The notes below the pieces were generated by a model. That model had not been told where the DNA came from and did not search any database. It saw nothing but the letters and a program-made list of their open reading frames with translations. Below are positions 15,485-53,785 of a stretch of 64,000 nt of DNA, in pieces. Origin of the DNA: Escherichia phage UGKSEcP2; sequence record OV876900, one strand, 5' to 3'. Numbering within the stretch: position 1 is the first letter of the stretch; every line of letters begins with the position of its first letter. A program made the translations under genes and the position numbers.

Positions 15485-15513
15485 AACAAAGGGACCGAAA
15501 GGTCCCTTTTTAT
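15485..15513. terminator. bidirectional terminator between gene 24 and rnlB
   Basis: gggacc-gaaa-ggtccc hairpin flanked by A-run and T-run. Confidence 0.7.
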
Positions 15514-16518
15514 TTAACTTACCAATTCAATCCAAGCCGGACGAAGTACATCTTGTACCATTTTAACTAATTCCTTCTTAATCAAAGAAGGATTATCCGC
15601 TTGAGTTAGAGTAATACCTTCACGAGAAGTTTCTTCCAAAATATCTTGAACAGTTAGTCCCATCACCTTTCCAAAATCTTTTGGACCAATTTCACCAATT
15701 TTAGAAATAACGTTATTTACTCGGTTCAGTGTAACGTAACAAGCTAAAATTCCAACCAATTTGTTATCAGCTTCTGACAGTTCAACTTTAGCTTTAATAG
15801 GCTTATCAGACTTTTTCTTTTCACTAAATTTAGAGTTCTTGTATTTGATAGCTACGCGATTGCCATTAGGCATCCAAGAAGGATAACAAGGTTTCAATAC
15901 ATATCCTTCAGCGGTAAATACTTCGCCTTTTGCTTCAGCATTCCAAACGCATTTATTTGCATCAACTAATCCAGCATGGTCTACCGTAAAATTATAATCC
16001 TGGACGACAGAATCTAAATCATTTGGCAATTTAATAAGCTCTTCAAATTTACCGCGACCTAAAAGTGGAGCCATTTTAAATTTAAATGTATTGCAGAATG
16101 ATTCCATCATATAATCATCGACATAAGTCACATCACCACTTTCTGTAGTAACAATAATGTCAAATACATAAAAATCTTTATCGCCATAATCGACATTCTT
16201 CTGAATGCCAGGTCCGGCGAATTCACCGAAGACTTGATAAGATACAACTGCTGAAGTTTCCATAATATCTTGTACTGCTTTAATGGAATCAGAGTAATTC
16301 TTCAAAATAATTTCATACCCAAAGAAATCTTCAGCAGGAAGAATAAGACCAGTGCGTTTAGCACAAGTTACTTTATCACGCTCAATAATTAATGAGAAAT
16401 TTGTGCCATGAATCTTTTCACGAGCTACCCATTCGCCGCCAGTCAATCCTAAACTGTAAAGTTTTTCAATGAATTTAGAATTGTAATGATTTTCAAGACT
16501 GCTATACTTTTTAAACAT
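15514..16518 (-). CDS. rnlB: RNA ligase 2 (Rnl2)
   Basis: 334 aa; N-terminus [14 protein letters not shown] and nucleotidyltransferase lysine motif region EKIHGTNF match recalled T4 Rnl2. Confidence 0.9.
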
Positions 16519-17102: not shown

Positions 17103-18815
17103 TTATGGATAGGTATAGATGATACCAGTTTCTAAAGCAGTTTTATGAATGATGTATCCATTACGTGATTCTTGAACATCAACTTCTGGATAGTCTTTCA
17201 TCATCTTCTGAAGAGTGTAACGATGCAGGTAGTATTTACTGTCTGGATCTTCAGTTTTCCAATCTTTACCTTCTTCGGTCATTTTTTGGATTTCATCCAT
17301 AACCCACCAACCGCACCAGATATAAGCTGAAGTACGATGTGGAAGAGGATGAACATAAGGCAATTCACCTTCTGGTTCCGGAGCAACTTTATCAGTTACC
17401 TGAACTTGGCCTGTTGCTTTAACTGTTTTACTATCATAGTCGGTTGCTGTAACGACAGCAGTAACTTCAATAGTTTGACTTCCAATAGATGAGGTGTCAA
17501 CGGTGTATACGTTAGTTGACCCTTCTACAGGAGAAGAATCTTTCTTCCATGAATAAGTAATTTGTGCTGCTTCAGGTGCTCCAGTAACATTAGCCGTAAA
17601 TGTAGCCGAAGCATCTTGCTGAACGTTAATAGAAGGAGGAGTCAATGTAACCTGTGGATTCATTGTCTTCTTATTAACTGTCAATGATACTTCATTAGAA
17701 GTAACTTCCTTTTCATTGTAATTTTCAGCCGTTACTTGGGCTACACACTTAACTGTTTTAGCTCCAACTGTGGTAGGAGTATAGTTAAATGTAGTAGTAG
17801 TTTCTCCATCGACCAGAGAACCGTCAACATACCACTGATACGTAGCAGACGCTCCTGGTGGCTGTGAAGCCAAGGCAGCAGTAAATTGAACTGGGGTTCC
17901 AATTACCCCGGCAGCAGGATTAGCAGGAGTTACGGCTAACGTAGTTGTCTGTGTTTTCTTATTAACTGTTAATGATACTTCATTAGAAGTAACTGTTTTT
18001 GCGTCATAATCTGTTGCTGTTACTTGCGCTACGCATTTAATTCTTTTTACTCCACTTGCAGTTGGAGTATAGCTAAATGTAGCAGAAGTCGCTTCACCAA
18101 TTTGAGAATCATCTACATACCACTGATACGTAGCAGATGCCCCATCAGGTTGAGAAGCTAAGGCAGCAGTAAATTCAACGGCTGTTCCAATCACTCCAGC
18201 TGGAGGACTATCAGGAGTTACTGCCAAGGTAGTCGTCTGCGTCTTTTTATTAACAGTCAATGATACTTCATTAGAAGTAACGCTTAGTGCATCATAATCT
18301 GCCGCAGTTACTTGAGCTACACACTTGATTTTTTTAACTCCGCTTGTGTCAGGAGTGTAATTGAATGTAGCGTCAGTTGCTTCGTCTACAGGAGAACCGT
18401 CAACGTGCCATTGATACGTAGCGTTTGCACCTGATGGCTGTGAAGCTAAGGCAGCGGTAAATTCAATTGGAGTTCCAATCACGCCAGCATCAGGGCTACC
18501 AGGAGTTACAGCTAAAGTAGTTGTTTGTGTCTTATTTTGAACTGTGATAGTTGTCGTAGTTTCTGCTGTTTCAGGTTCAGCTTCAGATTCTGGAACTGTA
18601 TTTGTTGCAACTACTTTAATAGTCTTTTGACCTGCAGGTCCTTTTAGTACATAGCTAAAAGTTGCTTCAGCTCCATCCTGTGGAACATTATCTACACTCC
18701 AAGCATAGGTAATAGTTCCACCTTCAGTTTGACCACTGGGTGTAGCAGTAAACTGCTTGGTTTCATCAATAACTCCTGTTGGGGTTTTAGGAGTTATATC
18801 AACTGTAAAAGTCAT
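17103..18815 (-). CDS. hoc: Hoc outer capsid decoration protein, extended form with three tandem Ig-like repeats
   Basis: 570 aa; N-terminus MTFTVDITPKTPTGVIDETKQF and C-terminal capsid-binding region match recalled T4 Hoc; three tandem 96-aa units between. Confidence 0.9.
   Translation of the reverse strand: MTFTVDITPKTPTGVIDETKQFTATPSGQTEGGTITYAWSVDNVPQDGAEATFSYVLKGPAGQKTIKVVATNTVPESEAEPETAETTTTITVQNKTQTTTLAVTPGSPDAGVIGTPIEFTAALASQPSGANATYQWHVDGSPVDEATDATFNYTPDTSGVKKIKCVAQVTAADYDALSVTSNEVSLTVNKKTQTTTLAVTPDSPPAGVIGTAVEFTAALASQPDGASATYQWYVDDSQIGEATSATFSYTPTASGVKRIKCVAQVTATDYDAKTVTSNEVSLTVNKKTQTTTLAVTPANPAAGVIGTPVQFTAALASQPPGASATYQWYVDGSLVDGETTTTFNYTPTTVGAKTVKCVAQVTAENYNEKEVTSNEVSLTVNKKTMNPQVTLTPPSINVQQDASATFTANVTGAPEAAQITYSWKKDSSPVEGSTNVYTVDTSSIGSQTIEVTAVVTATDYDSKTVKATGQVQVTDKVAPEPEGELPYVHPLPHRTSAYIWCGWWVMDEIQKMTEEGKDWKTEDPDSKYYLHRYTLQKMMKDYPEVDVQESRNGYIIHKTALETGIIYTYP
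17667..18530 (-). repeat. three tandem 288-bp direct repeats inside hoc, each encoding one 96-aa Ig-like unit
   Basis: Protein units TQTTTLAVTP...NEVSLTVNKK repeated three times; DNA unit boundaries at 18242/18243 and 17954/17955. Confidence 0.85.
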
Positions 18816-29595: not shown

Positions 29596-29625
29596 ATGGG
29601 GACCGAAAGGTCCCCATATTTTTAT
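29596..29625. terminator. bidirectional terminator between gene 54 and the alt region
   Basis: ggggacc-gaaa-ggtcccc followed by tatttttattt. Confidence 0.7.
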
Positions 29626-29912
29626 TTACGGAATGAAATAAAAGCAGCAACTGAAGCGACTAAACTGTCTTCAATATAAACTTCAATTTTTACCGGAGCT
29701 TCTGACTCAAATTTACCTGTTACTACACCTTGGAAAATGCTTTCAGTCTGTTCTGGCTTTGAAAAATTTTCAGAAGGAAAAATTCCGAACTTTTTATCTG
29801 TTCCAAAAATTTTGATAAATTCATCATAAACTGCTTCATTAAAAGCGTTATCAGCAGGAATAACGCCTTCAACTACAAGTTCTTGACCTAAAAAGCGTAA
29901 AGAAGATTTCAT
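29622..29912 (-). CDS. hypothetical protein (position of T4 alt.-3)
   Basis: 96 aa ATG ORF preceded by early promoter and GAGGA. Confidence 0.6.
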   Translation of the reverse strand: MKSSLRFLGQELVVEGVIPADNAFNEAVYDEFIKIFGTDKKFGIFPSENFSKPEQTESIFQGVVTGKFESEAPVKIEVYIEDSLVASVAAFISFRK

Positions 29913-29920
29913 TTTGTGTT

Positions 29921-29973
29921 CCTCATGTTATGTCAGTAAGATTATTATAACACAGCACGAGGGACTTGTAAAC
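29921..29973 (-). repeat. 53-bp early promoter/leader cassette, copy 1 (copy 2 at 45437..45489, 52 of 53 identical)
   Basis: cctcatgttatgtcagtaagattattataacacagcacgagggacttgtaaac compared with the copy upstream of alc, one mismatch. Confidence 0.8.
29944..29973 (-). promoter_or_regulatory. T4-type early promoter (GTTTAC-N18-TATAAT with TG extension)
   Basis: Minus-strand GTTTACAagtccctcgtgctgtgtTATAAT upstream of 96-aa ORF. Confidence 0.6.
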
Positions 29974-32030
29974 TACATCTTGAACTTTTTAGACATTCCG
30001 TTGATGTTAACCAAAGAAGCCAAGATTTGAGAAACTTCGTTTTCCTCTTCTTTTGATTCTTCTACAAGGAATTGATTAAACCCAGCCATTGGACGAACTT
30101 CACCAGTTTCCATTAGATGATCGCCATCATATACCGATTCTTCTAATTGTTCAGAAGGAGGAACGATTGTGCCTTCGATTAGATACTTGTTATAAGCAGT
30201 TTCTTTCATCATGTACGTGCTTACTTTATTAATCTTCAGCAAAATTCCACGCGGTAGAATAACTTCAGCTTCTGATGGAAATCCTGATAAATGACCTGGA
30301 ACGATAACTTTGATTCGCTCAGCCCCTTTAATTACCATACCTACGCTAGTTTCAGCATCTTCATTCGCATAAGCAGAATGACTGCCCATATGCATTAAAT
30401 CTTCAGCATCAACAGAACCTTCTCCTTCACCAGAAAATACTGCGCCGGAATCATCTAGAGCCATATAGTTTTTACCATGCTCACCGAAGATATTTGGTTT
30501 AAGCGATGTTGATACGAAGTTCTTGAAATAGAACATTTTATTTTCAATATTATGGCGTAAAGTTTTAAAAGTAACTTCTTGACCACGATAAAGCGTAGTT
30601 CCCGGAGGAAGAACTGATCCTTTGGCGAATGCAGAATCCATTGTCTCGATGTGTTTAATAGCTCGTTCCATGTATTCTTCACGGGTAGAATCCGGTTTAC
30701 CTAAAAGGAACGAGTTCATTTCAACATATGAATCTGCACAATAATCTTCAATTACATCAGACTCAGCCTGAGTTAATCCTTTTGGAGTTACTTCGGTGCT
30801 TGCGTATTCATATGCCTGAGCAGCAGATTCATTAATCAATTTATAAATGCTATTCATGACAAATTGAATAATAGCTACTTTTTCGTCTGGCGTGGCTTTA
30901 GAACCTTTAACTAAATCATTGATAATTTTCTTAATAACATCAAAGCTATTAGAAATATTAATGTCAGCGAGATCGCTCAAAATTTTATCGGTTTTATAAT
31001 CAAAGAATTCTTTATTCTTTAAATATTCTTGAGAACCTTGATATGTTATATCGCTCTGCAGTCTGATAGACGGATCACGTAAACGTGCATGGGCCAATGC
31101 AATATGATTTCGGAAGCTTTCTAGTTCATAATCGTTAGATTTAAAACGAGAAGCACTTCTCATACCACCGATAGCTCCTTTGCTGAAGTTTGAACCAATC
31201 TGAATAACGCCAGAGTTCATTGGTCCTTCTGCTTTATATACTGGAACTTTAGATTCAAACTCTTGATATTTCTTAGCAGCGAAGCTATCGCCCTGGAGTG
31301 AAGCATCGACAGTAGAATATTGAGCTTGTGCTGCTAATCGACGACTAATTTTAGTTTTCTGAATAACAGCTTGATCCGTGCGCTTATCATTTTCTAAAGC
31401 AATAGAAGCAGCAACAGCAACAGCTTTAGGAACAGCATTACCTGTTTTAACATCTACATAAACATCACCAACCTTTGATTCAACTTTTGTGAATAACTCA
31501 GTTGAAATAGGAGGTACACCTGGAATGTCTTCTAAATTGGCATTTTTACGGTAAACCATAATATATGCATACTTTTTATCATAATCCCAGATTTCCTTTA
31601 AAAGAACATATCGACCTGCTCCTTTAGTACGTACTAAACGGTCAGCAATAACTTGCATCTGACGAGCAGCGCCATTTGTTTTACTTTTTAGTACGCGGAA
31701 TAGGCATGCGTCAATTTTATACTGTTTCATTGTTTGAAGAGCAGTATCAAAAACCGCATTAATGACACCAATTGGATTTCCACCCAAGTTTTTAAGTTTA
31801 ACTAATGATAGTTTCTCATTAACACCTATCATTACGATATGCATCATTTTATCGCCTGGCTTAACGTTTTTATTTGTATCACCGCCAGAGGTGTATGTAC
31901 AAAATCTAAATCCAGGAAGCACGCTTTCTTCACCGGCTTGAATAGCAAAAATTTGAGGTATTTTATGCTTAGGATTTAAGTTAACAACCGGCGCCGAAGC
32001 GCCGTCAAATAATTCTGTAATAAGTTCCAT
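29973..32030 (-). CDS. alt: Alt-family ADP-ribosyltransferase, paralog A (685 aa)
   Basis: N-terminus MELITELFD; C-terminal R-S-EXE motifs (YRGQ, FVSTSL, EAEVILPRG); T4 Alt is about 682 aa. Confidence 0.85.
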   Translation of the reverse strand: MELITELFDGASAPVVNLNPKHKIPQIFAIQAGEESVLPGFRFCTYTSGGDTNKNVKPGDKMMHIVMIGVNEKLSLVKLKNLGGNPIGVINAVFDTALQTMKQYKIDACLFRVLKSKTNGAARQMQVIADRLVRTKGAGRYVLLKEIWDYDKKYAYIMVYRKNANLEDIPGVPPISTELFTKVESKVGDVYVDVKTGNAVPKAVAVAASIALENDKRTDQAVIQKTKISRRLAAQAQYSTVDASLQGDSFAAKKYQEFESKVPVYKAEGPMNSGVIQIGSNFSKGAIGGMRSASRFKSNDYELESFRNHIALAHARLRDPSIRLQSDITYQGSQEYLKNKEFFDYKTDKILSDLADINISNSFDVIKKIINDLVKGSKATPDEKVAIIQFVMNSIYKLINESAAQAYEYASTEVTPKGLTQAESDVIEDYCADSYVEMNSFLLGKPDSTREEYMERAIKHIETMDSAFAKGSVLPPGTTLYRGQEVTFKTLRHNIENKMFYFKNFVSTSLKPNIFGEHGKNYMALDDSGAVFSGEGEGSVDAEDLMHMGSHSAYANEDAETSVGMVIKGAERIKVIVPGHLSGFPSEAEVILPRGILLKINKVSTYMMKETAYNKYLIEGTIVPPSEQLEESVYDGDHLMETGEVRPMAGFNQFLVEESKEEENEVSQILASLVNINGMSKKFKM

Positions 32031-32033
32031 GAT

Positions 32034-34130
32034 TTATCCTTGAACGAACTTGTAAGGCATGTTTGCAATATCTATGCAAGATGCAATAATTCCAAGAGAT
32101 GATTCTACTTTTTGTTTAACATTTGATGAAACAAATGATGCAAAGTCAACTCTGTCTTCTATTTCAATATCATCTGTCATTGCAACTACTTCACCAGTTT
32201 CCATTAGACGGTCACCGTCATAAATTACCGATTCGGTGAGTTCTTCCGTAGTCATAACTTCAGCTTGAATGAGTTTTGTATTATTAGATGTTGTTCCGTC
32301 ATTATTAGAAGCATCAGTTATTTTATTAACTTTGACCATCAATCCGCGTGGTAGAATAACTTCAGCTTCTGTTGCTATTCCGAGACTTCCTGGATATACA
32401 ACATTAACTTTATGAGCTCCATCAATTGCCCATCCTATTTGAACTTTAACGTATTCAGGATTTTCTTTATACGCTCTTATTTCATTTGGATTAATAGTTA
32501 TTCCTTCTTCATTTTTATCAACTGTTAATTCATTACGAGCTTCTGGTTCTAAAAGACCAATACCAGCATGCGTAATTCCAAAACGTCCAAAAATGATAGG
32601 AGTTAAAGAAGTAGATACAAAATTTCTGAAATAGAACACTTTATTTTTAACTAGTGCTTCGTATATAGGAGCAGTCATGCTTTGAGCACGATAAACTGTA
32701 ATGCCTTCTGGTATACGGTCACCATTTTCAAAGGCTGAATCTAAATTATTTATCGCAGATTCAATTTCTTTTTCACTCATTACCTCATATCGTTCTGGAT
32801 TGTAGCGACCTAAAAGAAGATTATTGATGTCAGTATATCCTGAACCACAATACTCTCTAATGCCGCGCTTTTGTGATGGAGTATATTTAGAACCATCACG
32901 AGCAATAGTAATATCAATCATTGGACCTGCACCAATTCCAGAAAAACTATAAATCATTCTTTTGAGGAATTTAGTTTTTGCTGCATTCCAGGAATTTTTA
33001 GTTATTTCTTCCCAGACTTCATCTGTCTGTCCTTTACGAGTTTTATTATGTTTATCAAGCCAGTTATCTTTATATTCTTCAAATAATTGATTAACAACTG
33101 TTGCGTATTTCTCTAAACATTTTATTGAAGTAGTTGGTTCATTTTTAATCGCATTAAGAATTACATCTTTAATTTTTTCAGAAACTTCATTAACCTCACT
33201 TTTTGAAAAGAATTTATAGTCATAATGAAGTTCATCTGCAGTTCCTTCAGCAATAATTTTTGCTGCCTTAGTTTTAGAAGCTAATGAATTAATTCCAAGC
33301 TTCATTTCTTCTGCTTCGGGAATTAAAGGAGCTGTAGCAGGTTTATTGAAATTAGCTGCGGTAGATTCATACTTCTGGAATAATTCACTTTCAAATCTAG
33401 AAGATTCCAATGATTGACTTTGTGCAATTGCTCTACGGGAAATTTTAACTTTAACGATTACAGCTTGGTCAGAACGTTTATCATTTTCTTGTGCAATAGA
33501 TGCTGCAATTGCCTCATTTTTAGTTACTTGAGCTCCAGTATCTTTATTGATATAAACATCACCGACTTTCGATTCAACTTTAGTAAAGAGCTCGGTACTA
33601 ATTTCTGGAACTCCTGGAATGTCTTCTAATGATACATTTTTGCGATGTATAAGAATATATGCGTACTTTTTATCGTAATCCCAGAGTTCCTTAAGAAGGA
33701 CGTATCTGCCACCTGAACGACTGCGGATAAGTCTATCAGCAATAAGTTGAATTTGTCGAGCTTGACCAGCAGTTTTAGACTTAAGAATACGGAGCATACA
33801 GGCATCAATTTTATACTGACGCATCGTTTGCATTGCAACTGTAAAAACTGAATTGATATAATTAATTGGGCTTGGACCGAGACCTTTTAATTTAGCAATT
33901 GAACCTTTAGCAGTTAATGTAAAAGGAACAATATGCATCATTTTATCGCCCATCTTTAAATCGCGATTAGTATCACCTCCAGATGTATAGGTACATAAAC
34001 GAAAGCCTGGTTGTTCAATTGCGTCATCAACATGAACTGAAAAAATTTGCGGTATTTTCTTCTTTGGATTTAAGTTTGTAATCGGAAGAGTAGTATCTTC
34101 GTCAAATAATTCTGTAATGAGTTCCATCAT
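32034..34130 (-). CDS. Alt-family ADP-ribosyltransferase, paralog B (698 aa)
   Basis: N-terminal 230 aa about 70 percent identical to paralog A; C-terminal YRAQ, FVSTSL, EAEVILPRG motifs; own TATAAATA late promoter. Confidence 0.85.
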   Translation of the reverse strand: MMELITELFDEDTTLPITNLNPKKKIPQIFSVHVDDAIEQPGFRLCTYTSGGDTNRDLKMGDKMMHIVPFTLTAKGSIAKLKGLGPSPINYINSVFTVAMQTMRQYKIDACMLRILKSKTAGQARQIQLIADRLIRSRSGGRYVLLKELWDYDKKYAYILIHRKNVSLEDIPGVPEISTELFTKVESKVGDVYINKDTGAQVTKNEAIAASIAQENDKRSDQAVIVKVKISRRAIAQSQSLESSRFESELFQKYESTAANFNKPATAPLIPEAEEMKLGINSLASKTKAAKIIAEGTADELHYDYKFFSKSEVNEVSEKIKDVILNAIKNEPTTSIKCLEKYATVVNQLFEEYKDNWLDKHNKTRKGQTDEVWEEITKNSWNAAKTKFLKRMIYSFSGIGAGPMIDITIARDGSKYTPSQKRGIREYCGSGYTDINNLLLGRYNPERYEVMSEKEIESAINNLDSAFENGDRIPEGITVYRAQSMTAPIYEALVKNKVFYFRNFVSTSLTPIIFGRFGITHAGIGLLEPEARNELTVDKNEEGITINPNEIRAYKENPEYVKVQIGWAIDGAHKVNVVYPGSLGIATEAEVILPRGLMVKVNKITDASNNDGTTSNNTKLIQAEVMTTEELTESVIYDGDRLMETGEVVAMTDDIEIEDRVDFASFVSSNVKQKVESSLGIIASCIDIANMPYKFVQG

Positions 34131-38292: not shown

Positions 38293-38318
38293 TTTTATTC
38301 TCCGAGATGTTTAATTGC

Positions 38319-38358
38319 GGTACAGGTATATAATATCATATCCTGTACCAAAGTAAAC
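38319..38358 (-). promoter_or_regulatory. early promoter with -10 inside a stem-loop (PeSL-like)
   Basis: GTTTAC-N17-TATTAT; inverted repeat ggtacagg / cctgtacc flanks the -10. Confidence 0.5.
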
Positions 38359-38360
38359 AA

Positions 38361-38693
38361 TTATTTTACTACTTTCCAGTGCTGCATGTCAAGTTTACCA
38401 ACTTTTTTCATCTTCTCAATTAAGCGTTCGGCGCGTTGGCGAGCTGTAACATAATACCATTCACCCAATTCATTTTGTTCAATTTTTCCAACGATTACTG
38501 TATTCAATTCATAAATCCAACCAGTAAAGAAATTATGAACTTGAATTGTAAAGGTGAAATCTGTTCCCATACCTTCTGTTGTTTCTACTTCAATAATATC
38601 ACCTTCAACTGCCATTAAGAACCACATAGTTTCATCATATTTACCGTTGAAGCATTTAGTTTTAACTGCAGCGTTCAGATTAATTGTTTTCAT
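38361..38693 (-). CDS. hypothetical protein, 110 aa
   Basis: ATG ORF with GGAG upstream, downstream of early promoter. Confidence 0.55.
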   Translation of the reverse strand: MKTINLNAAVKTKCFNGKYDETMWFLMAVEGDIIEVETTEGMGTDFTFTIQVHNFFTGWIYELNTVIVGKIEQNELGEWYYVTARQRAERLIEKMKKVGKLDMQHWKVVK

Positions 38694-38701
38694 TTTATTC
38701 T

Positions 38702-38750
38702 CCTTTGTTTGTGTAAGATAATACTATCACAAAGGAACTATACTGTAAAC
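38702..38750 (-). promoter_or_regulatory. early promoter with stem-loop (PeSL-like)
   Basis: GTTTAC-N18-TAGTAT; inverted repeat cctttgt / acaaagg flanks the -10. Confidence 0.5.
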
Positions 38751-38770
38751 AACTTTGTGCAATCTTTGGA

Positions 38771-38798
38771 AAATAAAAAAGGACTCCCGAAGGAGTCC
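38771..38798 (-). terminator. terminator downstream of small basic protein gene
   Basis: ggactcc-cgaa-ggagtcc hairpin followed by U6 on minus strand. Confidence 0.65.
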
Positions 38799-38803
38799 TC
38801 AAC

Positions 38804-39022
38804 TTATGCTTTCTGCTTACCAAAACGAGAAGCATCATCTCGAAGAACCGCACGTGCTCGGCGCATGATCTTCTCAACAGTTTGATTGATACGAGAGTTC
38901 GACCCACGCTTGTAACCAGCGCGTTTAGAATCACCAACTTTCTTTTCAACTGCTTTCTTTGCTTTAGCTTGTTTTGCCATTATAAATTCTCTTTTAAATG
39001 AAAATGCAGGACTTATTGGCAT
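38804..39022 (-). CDS. small highly basic protein (58-72 aa depending on start)
   Basis: Lys/Arg-rich; alternative ATG at 38980 gives MAKQAKAKKAVEKK...; terminator hairpin directly downstream. Confidence 0.5.
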   Translation of the reverse strand: MPISPAFSFKREFIMAKQAKAKKAVEKKVGDSKRAGYKRGSNSRINQTVEKIMRRARAVLRDDASRFGKQKA

Positions 39023-42107: not shown

Positions 42108-42127
42108 TTCAATTTCCTCATTTGTTT

Positions 42128-42166
42128 TGGTAGAGCTATAATATCACAACTCTACCGTAAAGTAAA
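42128..42166 (-). promoter_or_regulatory. early promoter with stem-loop (PeSL-like)
   Basis: GTTTAC-N18-TATTAT; inverted repeat ggtagag / ctctacc flanks the -10. Confidence 0.5.
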
Positions 42167-44584: not shown

Positions 44585-44934
44585 TTAGAAAGGTCCTGGA
44601 TGTCTTCTGCGAACTTGTTGAAGGAGTTGTTGATTTGTTTTTCAACCAATCCTGGCTTATGAGCCACCACATCCGCCTTCTTTGCGTCTTTGCGCAGTTT
44701 TTCATTTTCACGCTCAATAGCAGCAATTGCCTCACGATTTTTATTATTCATCGCATCAATATAATTATACTGAATTCGCAAATTATTTAATGCTAAAGCG
44801 TTTTCATTGGCCGTTTTTGTAATTTCTATAACAGACGTTTCTAATCTTTCAATTTTATTTTTTAAAATTAAAGAAGTTCCGCCCAATGCAATTACAATTA
44901 ATAACAAGCCTGTTGTCGTATTACTTAATTGCAT
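44581..44934 (-). CDS. inner-membrane spanin (i-spanin; T4 pseT.3-like)
   Basis: 117 aa; N-terminal transmembrane helix TTGLLLIVIALGGTSLIL followed by coiled-coil. Confidence 0.7.
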   Translation of the reverse strand: MQLSNTTTGLLLIVIALGGTSLILKNKIERLETSVIEITKTANENALALNNLRIQYNYIDAMNNKNREAIAAIERENEKLRKDAKKADVVAHKPGLVEKQINNSFNKFAEDIQDLSK

Positions 44935-45428
44935 AAAGTTTTAATAACCTCTATAATATCGTCTTGAGAAAGACCGTTAATTAAAATATGATGTTCAGCC
45001 GGAGATTTAGAAATTTTAAAGCATGCCTCAACATCTTCTGCCATATCTGATGCGCTACGATTTGGATTACTAATTCCAAGACGATGTTTTCCCGTTAAAG
45101 GATTAACGATGATATAGCATTTACAGTTGTTAATATGAACATTAGGTTGAGTCTGATTAATGAACACATCACAATCATATTTCGCAAGCTGATTTTCTAA
45201 AAAGACTTTCATCTCCTCAACCGCATCAGGAAGCATATCACGGGCTTGCTCAAGACGACGATTTCGATATTCTTTAATGGTCGTTTTCCGCTTGACTTGC
45301 TTAGCTAAATCTTTCTTAAGATCGGTGATATATCCAACTCGACGATTTCCTTTAAATACAGAAATCCCATCTGTAGTATCACCGTATGCTTCAACGACCA
45401 TCTCAGTAGTAATAAGCTGCAAATCCAT
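44925..45428 (-). CDS. alc: Alc, inhibitor of host transcription on cytosine DNA
   Basis: 167 aa, T4 Alc length; position between spanins and rnlA; early promoter upstream. Confidence 0.8.
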   Translation of the reverse strand: MDLQLITTEMVVEAYGDTTDGISVFKGNRRVGYITDLKKDLAKQVKRKTTIKEYRNRRLEQARDMLPDAVEEMKVFLENQLAKYDCDVFINQTQPNVHINNCKCYIIVNPLTGKHRLGISNPNRSASDMAEDVEACFKISKSPAEHHILINGLSQDDIIEVIKTLCN

Positions 45429-45436
45429 TATAAAGT

Positions 45437-45489
45437 CCTCATGTTATGTCAGTAAGATTACTATAACACAGCACGAGGGACTTGTAAAC
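45437..45489 (-). repeat. 53-bp early promoter/leader cassette, copy 2
   Basis: Near-identical to 29921..29973; lies between rnlA stop and alc start. Confidence 0.8.
45460..45489 (-). promoter_or_regulatory. T4-type early promoter upstream of alc
   Basis: Minus-strand GTTTAC-N18-TATAGT. Confidence 0.55.
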
Positions 45490-45492
45490 AGC

Positions 45493-47080
<1,588 letters not shown>

Positions 47081-53646: not shown

Positions 53647-53749
53647 TTTATTCTCCTTAGCAAGCTTTAATCAAAAGGTATAAGCAAACTAACATAACTG
53701 CTGCCATAATATAAGGTGCGAACATTTTCTTTTCTCCATTAGTTTTGAT

Positions 53750-53785
53750 AGGGTAATAGTATCACACTACTACCCTTCTGTAAAC
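53750..53785 (-). promoter_or_regulatory. early promoter (GTTTAC-N18-TACTAT)
   Basis: Motif match; short inverted repeat agggta / taccct around the -10. Confidence 0.45.

Follow-up and report, generated by a model that had tools for sequence, protein, structure and literature searches.

Why is an early promoter, together with its leader, present twice and in almost the same letters at two distant places in a T4-type phage genome? We addressed this question in a 64,000-nucleotide (nt) stretch of Escherichia phage UGKSEcP2 (record OV876900; hereafter the window), in which a 54-nt unit, here called the cassette, stands before alc and before a homolog of alt.-3. A repeat search of the window placed copy A at 29920-29973 and copy B at 45436-45489, both on the minus strand and 98% identical with one mismatch; the copies are direct repeats 15,516 nt apart and represent the sole long near-perfect non-coding repeat in these 64 kb. 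The original prediction, made from the letters of the window, had reported 53 bp of this unit with a second copy 15.5 kb away carrying one mismatch. A pattern search of the window with that 53-bp sequence confirmed this, returning two matches only (29921-29973 with 0 mismatches and 45437-45489 with 1 mismatch), and a match was found in 0/100 dinucleotide-preserving shuffles. When the copies were aligned with 150 nt of flanking sequence, the identity spanned the G of GTTTAC to the A of GAGGA and thus was not confined to the promoter hexamers, and the flanks were unrelated. The sole mismatch replaces TATAAT in copy A by TATAGT in copy B. Each copy fills the interval from the stop codon of one gene to the gene that follows, namely between the Alt-like gene and alt.-3 (copy A) and between rnlA and alc (copy B). 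The assignment of a 96-amino-acid (aa) open reading frame (ORF) and of alc as the downstream genes also held, the former being a DUF5498 alt.-3 homolog and the latter carrying the Alc domain.

29920-29973, minus strand: copy A of the cassette; its first base is the G of the TAG that closes the Alt-like gene, and its last bases are GAGGA, 7 nt short of the alt.-3 ATG
29622-29912, minus strand: alt.-3 homolog downstream of copy A, 96 aa, DUF5498 (Pfam)
29973-32030, minus strand: Alt-like ADP-ribosyltransferase paralog upstream of copy A, 685 aa, ADPrib_exo_Tox (Pfam)
45436-45489, minus strand: copy B of the cassette, starting 3 nt past the TAA stop codon of rnlA and ending 7 nt before the alc ATG
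44925-45428, minus strand: alc downstream of copy B, 167 aa, ALC PF17527 (Pfam)
45493-46653, minus strand: rnlA (gene 63, RNA ligase 1) upstream of copy B

Each copy comprises an early promoter, a short leader of about 25 nt and a GAGG Shine–Dalgarno (SD) sequence on the minus strand, in agreement with the earlier description of an early promoter plus a leader closing in an SD (GAGGA) before each start codon. A consensus scan identified TTTACA-17-TATAAT at 29972-29944 in copy A (11/12 consensus positions) and TTTACA-17-TATAGT at 45488-45460 in copy B (10/12), both with a TG extension; the GTTTAC-N18-TATAAT and GTTTAC-N18-TATAGT motifs described before on the minus strand are the same sites with the count begun one base upstream. 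GTTTAC and TGTG-TATAAT within the unit are plain T4 early-promoter consensus, and the conservation reaches well past what the promoter hexamers require, as had been claimed.

29967-29972, minus strand: -35 element TTTACA of copy A (consensus scan)
29944-29949, minus strand: -10 element TATAAT of copy A, with a TGn extension before it, in the upper part of the hairpin described below
29937, minus strand: predicted transcription start of copy A, an A 7 nt past the -10 element and in the 3′ half of the hairpin, placed by promoter geometry
45483-45488, minus strand: -35 element TTTACA of copy B (consensus scan)
45460-45465, minus strand: -10 element TATAGT of copy B (consensus scan)
45453, minus strand: predicted transcription start of copy B, placed by promoter geometry
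About 123,021 and 136,300 in T4 coordinates: the two predicted starts

A terminator scan found no terminator at either copy or between the upstream gene (Alt-like or rnlA) and the cassette, and no T-run follows either hairpin. Direct reading of the 54-nt unit revealed no MotA box, late promoter or RegB site (GGAG), no Rfam family matched either copy, and the T4 records AF158101 and NC_000866 annotate no promoter features at either site. alc is an early gene (PMC2988021); a T4 omics paper gives no timing for either alc or alt.-3.

The extended conservation noticed in the original prediction is real, while its reason had been missed: the promoter spacer and the leader are predicted to be the two arms of one RNA hairpin that covers the SD, and we attribute the end-to-end conservation to this pairing of the unit's two halves. 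Cassette positions 9-24, in the spacer, are complementary to positions 41-56, in the leader, and a small inner stem (27-31/36-40) includes part of the -10 element. For RNA that reads through from upstream, a stem of about 20 bp with -17 to -27 kcal/mol was predicted. In folds computed on 91-nt read-through RNAs, the minimum free energy (MFE) of copy A was -20.6 kcal/mol (z = -3.2) and that of copy B was -23.5 kcal/mol (z = -2.1), and the copy A cassettes of two other Tequatroviruses reached -26.9 and -25.7 kcal/mol (z = -5.2 and -4.6). GAGG was paired at 4/4 nt in the predicted hairpins of both copies. The RNA from the predicted start to the start codon (29909-29937 and 45425-45453) had an MFE of 0 kcal/mol in both copies. 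The outermost pairs of hairpin B (AAG/CUU) extend beyond the repeat.

29950-29965, minus strand: 5′ arm of hairpin A, positions 9-24, in the promoter spacer and contained only in RNA begun upstream of the cassette
29918-29933, minus strand: 3′ arm of hairpin A, positions 41-56, with the SD GAGG at 29921-29924
45466-45483, minus strand: 5′ arm of hairpin B, positions 7-24
45433-45449, minus strand: 3′ arm of hairpin B, positions 41-57, with the SD GAGG at 45437-45440
38693-38749, minus strand: third cassette of the same design and unrelated sequence, upstream of the 30.8 homolog, with its SD paired in the hairpin

Among 22 distinct Tequatrovirus haplotypes, 93% of the alignment cells were paired, as against at most 56% in slid registers, and, among the substitutions, pair 15-50 runs through C-G, U.G and U-A while pair 16-49 changes from G.U to A-U. 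In the third cassette, the spacer TTCCTTTGT pairs with the SD-containing ACAAAGGAG. Three other early promoters on the minus strand of the window (42110-42166, 53730-53784 and 38300-38357) have a hairpin with its 5′ arm in the spacer and its 3′ arm just past the -10 element.

The alc cassettes of other genera provided the strongest evidence for the pairing. Alc homologs were located across Tevenvirinae, and in Karam-, Gelderland-, Jiaoda- and Dhakavirus and several IMG/VR lineages GTTTACA comes immediately after the rnlA stop codon, with a 17-nt spacer that opens with a stretch complementary to the SD region of alc and a distance from the -35 element to the ATG of 60-64 nt throughout. The arm sequences differ among lineages yet remain complementary (for example TCTCCATTTGGTT, ATCCTCATCAG, CCTCTCGTTTTTG and CCTCGTTTGTT): cognate arm 1/arm 2 duplexes had a mean of -19.2 kcal/mol versus -11.0 kcal/mol for non-cognate combinations, and 0/20,000 permutations reached the observed value. 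In the predicted folds the SD was paired at 4/4 nt in 16/18 cassettes and at 3/4 nt in the other two; the end of the 3′ arm falls exactly on the SD in all 18 cassettes of this type. The RNAs from the cassettes' own promoters folded at only 0 to -2 kcal/mol.

A covariance model built solely from Karam- and Gelderlandvirus cassettes recovered the alc cassettes of other genera, both copies in T4, T2, another Tequatrovirus and the window, and also the third cassette of the window (38693-38743). In the resulting alignment, which is fitted to the structure and therefore inflates pair counts, 92.3% of the cells held canonical pairs versus 72.4% after shuffling (0/1000 shuffles reached the observed value), and compensatory changes were present at 10/17 pairs. 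MAFFT combined with RNAalifold gave no consensus structure for 24 cassettes, since the arms are out of register between genera. Together, these results suggest that the complementarity between spacer and SD region has been maintained at alc while the sequences of the arms changed.

How widespread is the twin arrangement, and do the copies move? Both loci matched about 498 phage records at 95-100% identity, all of the T4 genus (Tequatrovirus). A sensitive search with the 54-mer gave 997 places in 499 records, with two places per record in all 60 records among the matches listed. T4 and T2 are both among the matches, and in T4 (NC_000866) the copies stand upstream of alc and alt.-3. The pair is a fixed feature of Tequatrovirus, and since the copies occupy the same two loci in essentially every record, the cassette is not mobile within the genus. 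The original prediction had likened the repeat to the mobile promoter-early stem-loop (PeSL) cassettes, which were described in T4-type phages by Arbiol et al. 2010 (PMC2839356) and Comeau et al. 2014 (PMC4122927); in its architecture the unit agrees with what these papers describe, but the suggested mobility found no counterpart in the 499 records. Deletion or duplication variants joined at the repeat were likewise not seen: the deletion junction (rnlA end, repeat, alt.-3 start) and the duplication junction (Alt-like end, repeat, alc start) each occurred in 0/499 records. The suggestion that the direct repeats could recombine was thus right for the exchange of sequence, to which derived variants common to both loci point as described below, but not for reciprocal recombination. 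It had also been considered that the sequence might be a universally conserved leader of these two genes in all T4-like phages; it is universal at both genes in the T4 genus, whereas most other T4-like genera sampled have a different alt.-3 cassette.

The region upstream of copy A is variable. Beside copy A, T4 and the window are distinguished by an indel that is joined at a CTAAAAAGT microhomology instead of at the repeat; it ends 17 nt upstream of the repeat. The window carries two tandem genes for Alt-type ADP-ribosyltransferases on the minus strand (29973-32030, 685 aa; 32034-34130, 698 aa), which share the repeat families D2-D5, D12 and D16 at a spacing of about 2094 nt. T4 alt.-1 and alt.-2 (L001, 30887-31272) are the remnant of the second Alt paralog: they match nt 1-346 of the gene for the 685-aa protein (335/346) and then its last 17 nt via CTAAAAAGT, so that the change in T4 is an internal deletion of about 1.7 kb between two CTAAAAAGT microhomologies.

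The evolution of the two copies was examined by reading both of them in 20 Tequatrovirus genomes, which were taken singly from the phage collection and supplemented by pattern scans of IMG/VR and JGI metagenomes (9 and 12 stretches). In these genomes the two loci had a common consensus with 0 fixed differences between copies A and B, and eight derived alleles (A12, T15, A16, C19, C27, A32, A33 and T34) were present at both loci. For six of the eight, one genome carried the allele in both of its copies; this held for A16 (three genomes), C27 (two genomes), A33 (BF15), A12 (ZCEC14) and C19 and A32 (the window), A32 being in both copies of T2 as well. The mean distance between copies A and B was 1.95 within genomes versus 2.69 between genomes (permutation p = 5e-5), and the within-genome value was no larger than the distances between orthologs (2.92 for copy A and 1.95 for copy B). 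The simplest account is that the copies have been homogenized by repeated gene conversion, because the same mutations would have had to arise in parallel many times if the loci evolved independently; a possible alternative is that selection, such as that exerted by a trans-acting factor common to both, favors matching sequences. In the Tequatrovirus vB_EcoM_Shinka (L035, 15406-16039), alc is annotated as two coding sequences of 120 and 456 nt with both cassettes intact, which suggests a disrupted gene or a sequencing error.

Outside Tequatrovirus, the alt.-3 gene of Dhaka-, Gelderland-, Karam- and Gaprivervirus has an early promoter of its own directly past the Alt stop codon. The cassette in these four genera has a short hairpin internal to the spacer with an AAGGA/GGAAG-type loop and is no copy of the alc cassette. 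More generally, this second type of cassette consists of GTTTACA, a short hairpin wholly in the spacer with an SD-like loop (AAGGA, GGAAG or ATGGAA), the -10 element and a leader ending in ACATGAGGA. Most other genera sampled have it at alt.-3; Mosigvirus-like phages and two further lineages have it at alc. Listed below are the positions of second-type cassettes and, within single genomes, the identity of the alc cassette to the alt.-3 cassette over the span from the -35 element to the ATG.

Second-type cassettes: L045 1017-1080; L046 6856-6920; L095-L108, about 540-600; L040 238-300
Second-type cassettes: L085/L086, about 1140-1200; L109 4207-4280
Identity of alc and alt.-3 cassettes, Tequatrovirus: 91%
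Identity, one Dhakavirus-like contig: 87%
Identity, Mosigvirus-like phage: 80%
Identity, typical Dhakavirus: 72%
Identity, Karamvirus: 66%
Identity, Gelderlandvirus: 59%
Identity, background: about 66-67%
Leaders of the Dhakavirus-like contig: alc, L072 1144-1203; alt.-3, L095 543-603

In the Dhakavirus-like IMG/VR contig 2706795356, the last 30 nt of the alc and alt.-3 leaders are identical (ACCTTACACAAACATGAGGAGAACATTATG), whereas they differ in other Dhakaviruses, which has the appearance of a separate, partial conversion involving this pair of loci. A Mosigvirus-like phage has the short-hairpin type at both loci, but its alc cassette is 78% identical to the Dhakavirus alt.-3 cassette, so that it offers only modest evidence of conversion within a genome. 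More than one transfer of cassette types has taken place between alc and alt.-3, apparently in both directions, and, judging from the genera compared, the near-identical duplicate is specific to the T4 genus. The signals for the direction of copying in Tequatrovirus are mixed, the SD-covering design being typical of alc and the 3′ motif ACATGAGGA being typical of alt.-3 leaders, and the direction is uncertain. Gapriverviruses (L039, 54-287, ECML-359; L057, L058 and L087) carry, immediately before alc, an extra short ORF that resembles the N-terminal part of Alc and has an SD-containing stem of its own (CCATCAACTACTGATGAGGA); tblastn found two Alc-like places in the ECML-359 record.

We propose the following mechanism. 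RNA polymerase arriving from the Alt-like gene or from rnlA would meet no terminator and would transcribe both arms; the read-through RNA would fold, the SD would be buried and alc and alt.-3 would be poorly translated. RNA initiated at the cassette's own promoter would begin inside the hairpin, at about position 37; being without the 5′ arm and predicted to be unstructured, it would leave the SD free. With the SD masked on the one RNA and free on the other, synthesis of Alc and Alt.-3 would follow the immediate-early burst from their own promoter and end when the early promoters are shut off. In the ancestor of Tequatrovirus, one locus would have been overwritten by the other, and gene conversion across the 54-nt homology would have continued since then. 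We assign a probability of roughly 0.55 to the reading that promoter-dependent unmasking of the SD makes the translation of each of the two genes depend on its own early promoter. The broader proposal is more tentative, and we hold it at slightly less than an even chance: that the cassette represents an undescribed "early-only" gate in Tevenvirinae, an early promoter inside an SD-masking hairpin that would prevent translation from middle or late read-through RNA, that it was copied to alt.-3 in the T4 genus, and that the copies have been kept matched by gene conversion over the whole history of the genus.

Several observations weigh against SD masking as the function of the hairpin. Covariation inside Tequatrovirus alone was not significant (66-85 of 500 shuffles reached the observed values), because the diversity is too low, and the variants A12, A13, C19 and A29 disrupt pairs, C19 being present in both copies of the window. 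The pair counts of the cross-genus alignment are inflated by its fit to the structure, as stated above. The stems compared across genera are nearly all Watson–Crick and their sense and antisense folds are equally stable, so a role at the DNA level or in an antisense RNA is possible. At alc itself, Mosigvirus-like phages and L085/L086 have a short hairpin within the spacer that does not cover the SD, and L066, L073 and L083 have a hairpin over the -10 element only; the SD-covering design is therefore not obligatory for alc. In the window, the hairpins of the three other early promoters mentioned above stop short of the SD, and the primary role of such early-promoter hairpins may be something other than SD masking. 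Finally, a search of the literature for transcript or translation data on both loci found none, and the start site and the read-through RNA are assumptions of the model.

The main rival explanation is an insulator of the PeSL type, in which the stem-loop would terminate or attenuate the upstream polymerase, the embedded promoter would restart transcription and the masking of the SD would be incidental. Such a function would fit the immediate start of the hairpin past the upstream stop codon in all lineages and the presence of spacer/-10 hairpins without the SD at several early promoters of the window, and PeSL stem-loops of RB49 and phi1 that lie between or over the -35 and -10 elements were reported to cut downstream lacZ expression about as much as a strong terminator does. 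The cassettes, however, have neither a T-run after the hairpin nor a hit in the terminator scan at either copy, their stems are AU-rich, unlike the G-run/C-run stems of RB49, and an insulator does not account for a 3′ arm whose end falls exactly on the SD in 18/18 cassettes. We therefore consider it unlikely. An alternative that we find less probable still is that the hairpin serves the upstream message, either by protecting the 3′ end of the rnlA or Alt-like mRNA or through translational coupling by ribosomes that melt the stem. Intercistronic hairpins commonly stabilize upstream RNA, a general point in favor of protection, and, with 0-6 nt between the stop codon and GTTTAC and a 5′ arm that starts at position 7-9 in all lineages, a terminating ribosome would reach the base of the stem. 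Judged by this spacing, however, no more than about 0-3 of the roughly 20 pairs would be opened by a ribosome that has stopped there, and 3′-end protection needs neither an SD in the stem nor an embedded promoter.

Could the unit instead be a recent duplicate of a strong promoter and leader under ordinary constraint, its inverted repeat being fortuitous? The lack of significant covariation within the genus and the plain early-promoter consensus in part of the unit would be expected under this view, but the complementarity of the alc arms is kept across genera despite different sequences, the duplicate is genus-wide and hence not recent, and polymorphisms common to both loci require ongoing exchange; an absence of any structural function is thus very improbable. 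We regard as the least probable of all an actively mobile PeSL that excises and integrates via recombination between copies, forming mini-circles and shuffling adjacent genes. Mini-circles between nearby PeSLs have been reported in RB49 and phi1, and over evolutionary time alc and alt.-3 have exchanged cassette types. Against this stand the constancy of the two loci in essentially all 499 records, the absence of either recombinant junction from them and the neighboring T4 indel, whose junction is a microhomology instead of the repeat. In addition, genes 30 and 31, which are essential in T4, lie in the 15.5 kb between the copies, so that excision of this segment would be lethal.

Three features elsewhere in the window were also recorded. 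A GC-rich tetraloop hairpin, GGGACCGAAAGGTCCC, is present twice (15491-15537 and 29596-29645); the hairpin at 29596-29617, between the convergent genes 54 and alt.-3, was called a terminator on both strands. A 570-aa ORF at 17103-18815 on the minus strand contains three tandem 288-nt repeats (17665-18540, 78% identity) with Ig and PKD domain matches; its product resembles a head decoration protein of the Hoc kind and exceeds the 376 aa of T4 Hoc. A weak Rfam match to the Rhizobiales small RNA Atu_C8 at 38765-38848 on the minus strand (31 bits against a gathering score of 50, E = 0.006) is most likely due to chance.

If promoter-dependent SD unmasking is correct, it would help to explain why the synthesis of individual early proteins such as Alc stops although later transcripts cross their genes, in a phage whose shut-off of early expression is "not completely understood" (PMC3014915), and a classic regulatory design of T4 would be widened from late to early genes. 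The concerted evolution of the copies indicates that promoter cassettes of the PeSL type exchange sequence between distant loci, supporting the core premise of the modular-shuffling model in a setting in which reciprocal products would be lethal. Singer and colleagues are said to have put the minimum homology for T4 recombination at roughly 50 bp in 1982; if conversion is the homogenizing process, the cassettes would offer a natural system to measure ectopic conversion at this minimal length. The twin cassettes are also a 54-bp direct repeat of concern to phage engineers. Alt.-3, which is predicted to be expressed from the same promoter and leader as alc, is dispensable, and T4 mutants that escape the CmdTAC defense system carry C-terminal extensions of it (PMC11618068).

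How does the cassette compare with known systems? The PeSL papers describe five positional subclasses of stem-loops, including stem-loops between the promoter boxes or overlapping the -10 element (PMC2839356; PMC4122927). Measured against that description, the cassette is like a PeSL in being bounded by an upstream stop codon and a downstream SD with start codon, in having a sigma-70-like early promoter that matches the PST/T4 PeSL consensus TTTACW-N17-TAYWAT, in the overlap of its stem-loop with the spacer and the -10 element, with G-T pairs, and in the similarity of its copies, which is sufficient for recombination. PeSLs are described as favoring hyperplastic regions beside ORFans and indels; copy A adjoins the variable Alt-paralog region and a small gene of unassigned function, alt.-3 (DUF5498), and copy B lies between the conserved rnlA and alc genes, whose order is kept across genera. 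Unlike a PeSL as described there, the cassette has a stem that extends to the SD and lacks terminator features, and it is present in only two copies at loci fixed throughout the genus. The exchange appears as gene conversion, with no insertion, deletion or mini-circle product seen, indels having been sought by the junction search in 499 records. The published PST/T4 PeSL stem-loops are described as standing just upstream of the promoter, unlike those of the window cassettes.

Dispersed repeats such as duplicated bacterial tuf genes and rRNA operons evolve in concert by gene conversion. The cassettes resemble them in that the paralogs are more alike than their age predicts and the same derived variants occur at both loci; they differ in that the tract is only 54 nt long and is a regulatory cassette instead of a gene.

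A literature search, which covered the PeSL papers without their figures and supplements and did not include Miller et al. 2003, found no description of an early-promoter hairpin at alc or of this element. The closest design is that of the T4 hairpins over ribosome-binding sites that are bypassed by an internal promoter, at e, soc, I-TevI/II/III and segB and at mobE of Aeh1 (PMC2988022). As in e, soc and I-TevI, the SD would be covered only on RNA begun upstream, according to the predicted hairpin, and an internal promoter would yield a shorter RNA without the 5′ arm and with a free SD, given the start expected from promoter geometry. The known T4 cases are "all late genes" with a late (or middle) promoter inside the hairpin (PMC2988022), whereas the internal promoter of the cassette is a sigma-70 early promoter, not a late one (TATAAATA), and alc is an early gene. 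Thus, where the hairpins of the T4 late genes delay translation, the logic of the cassette would confine it to the early period.

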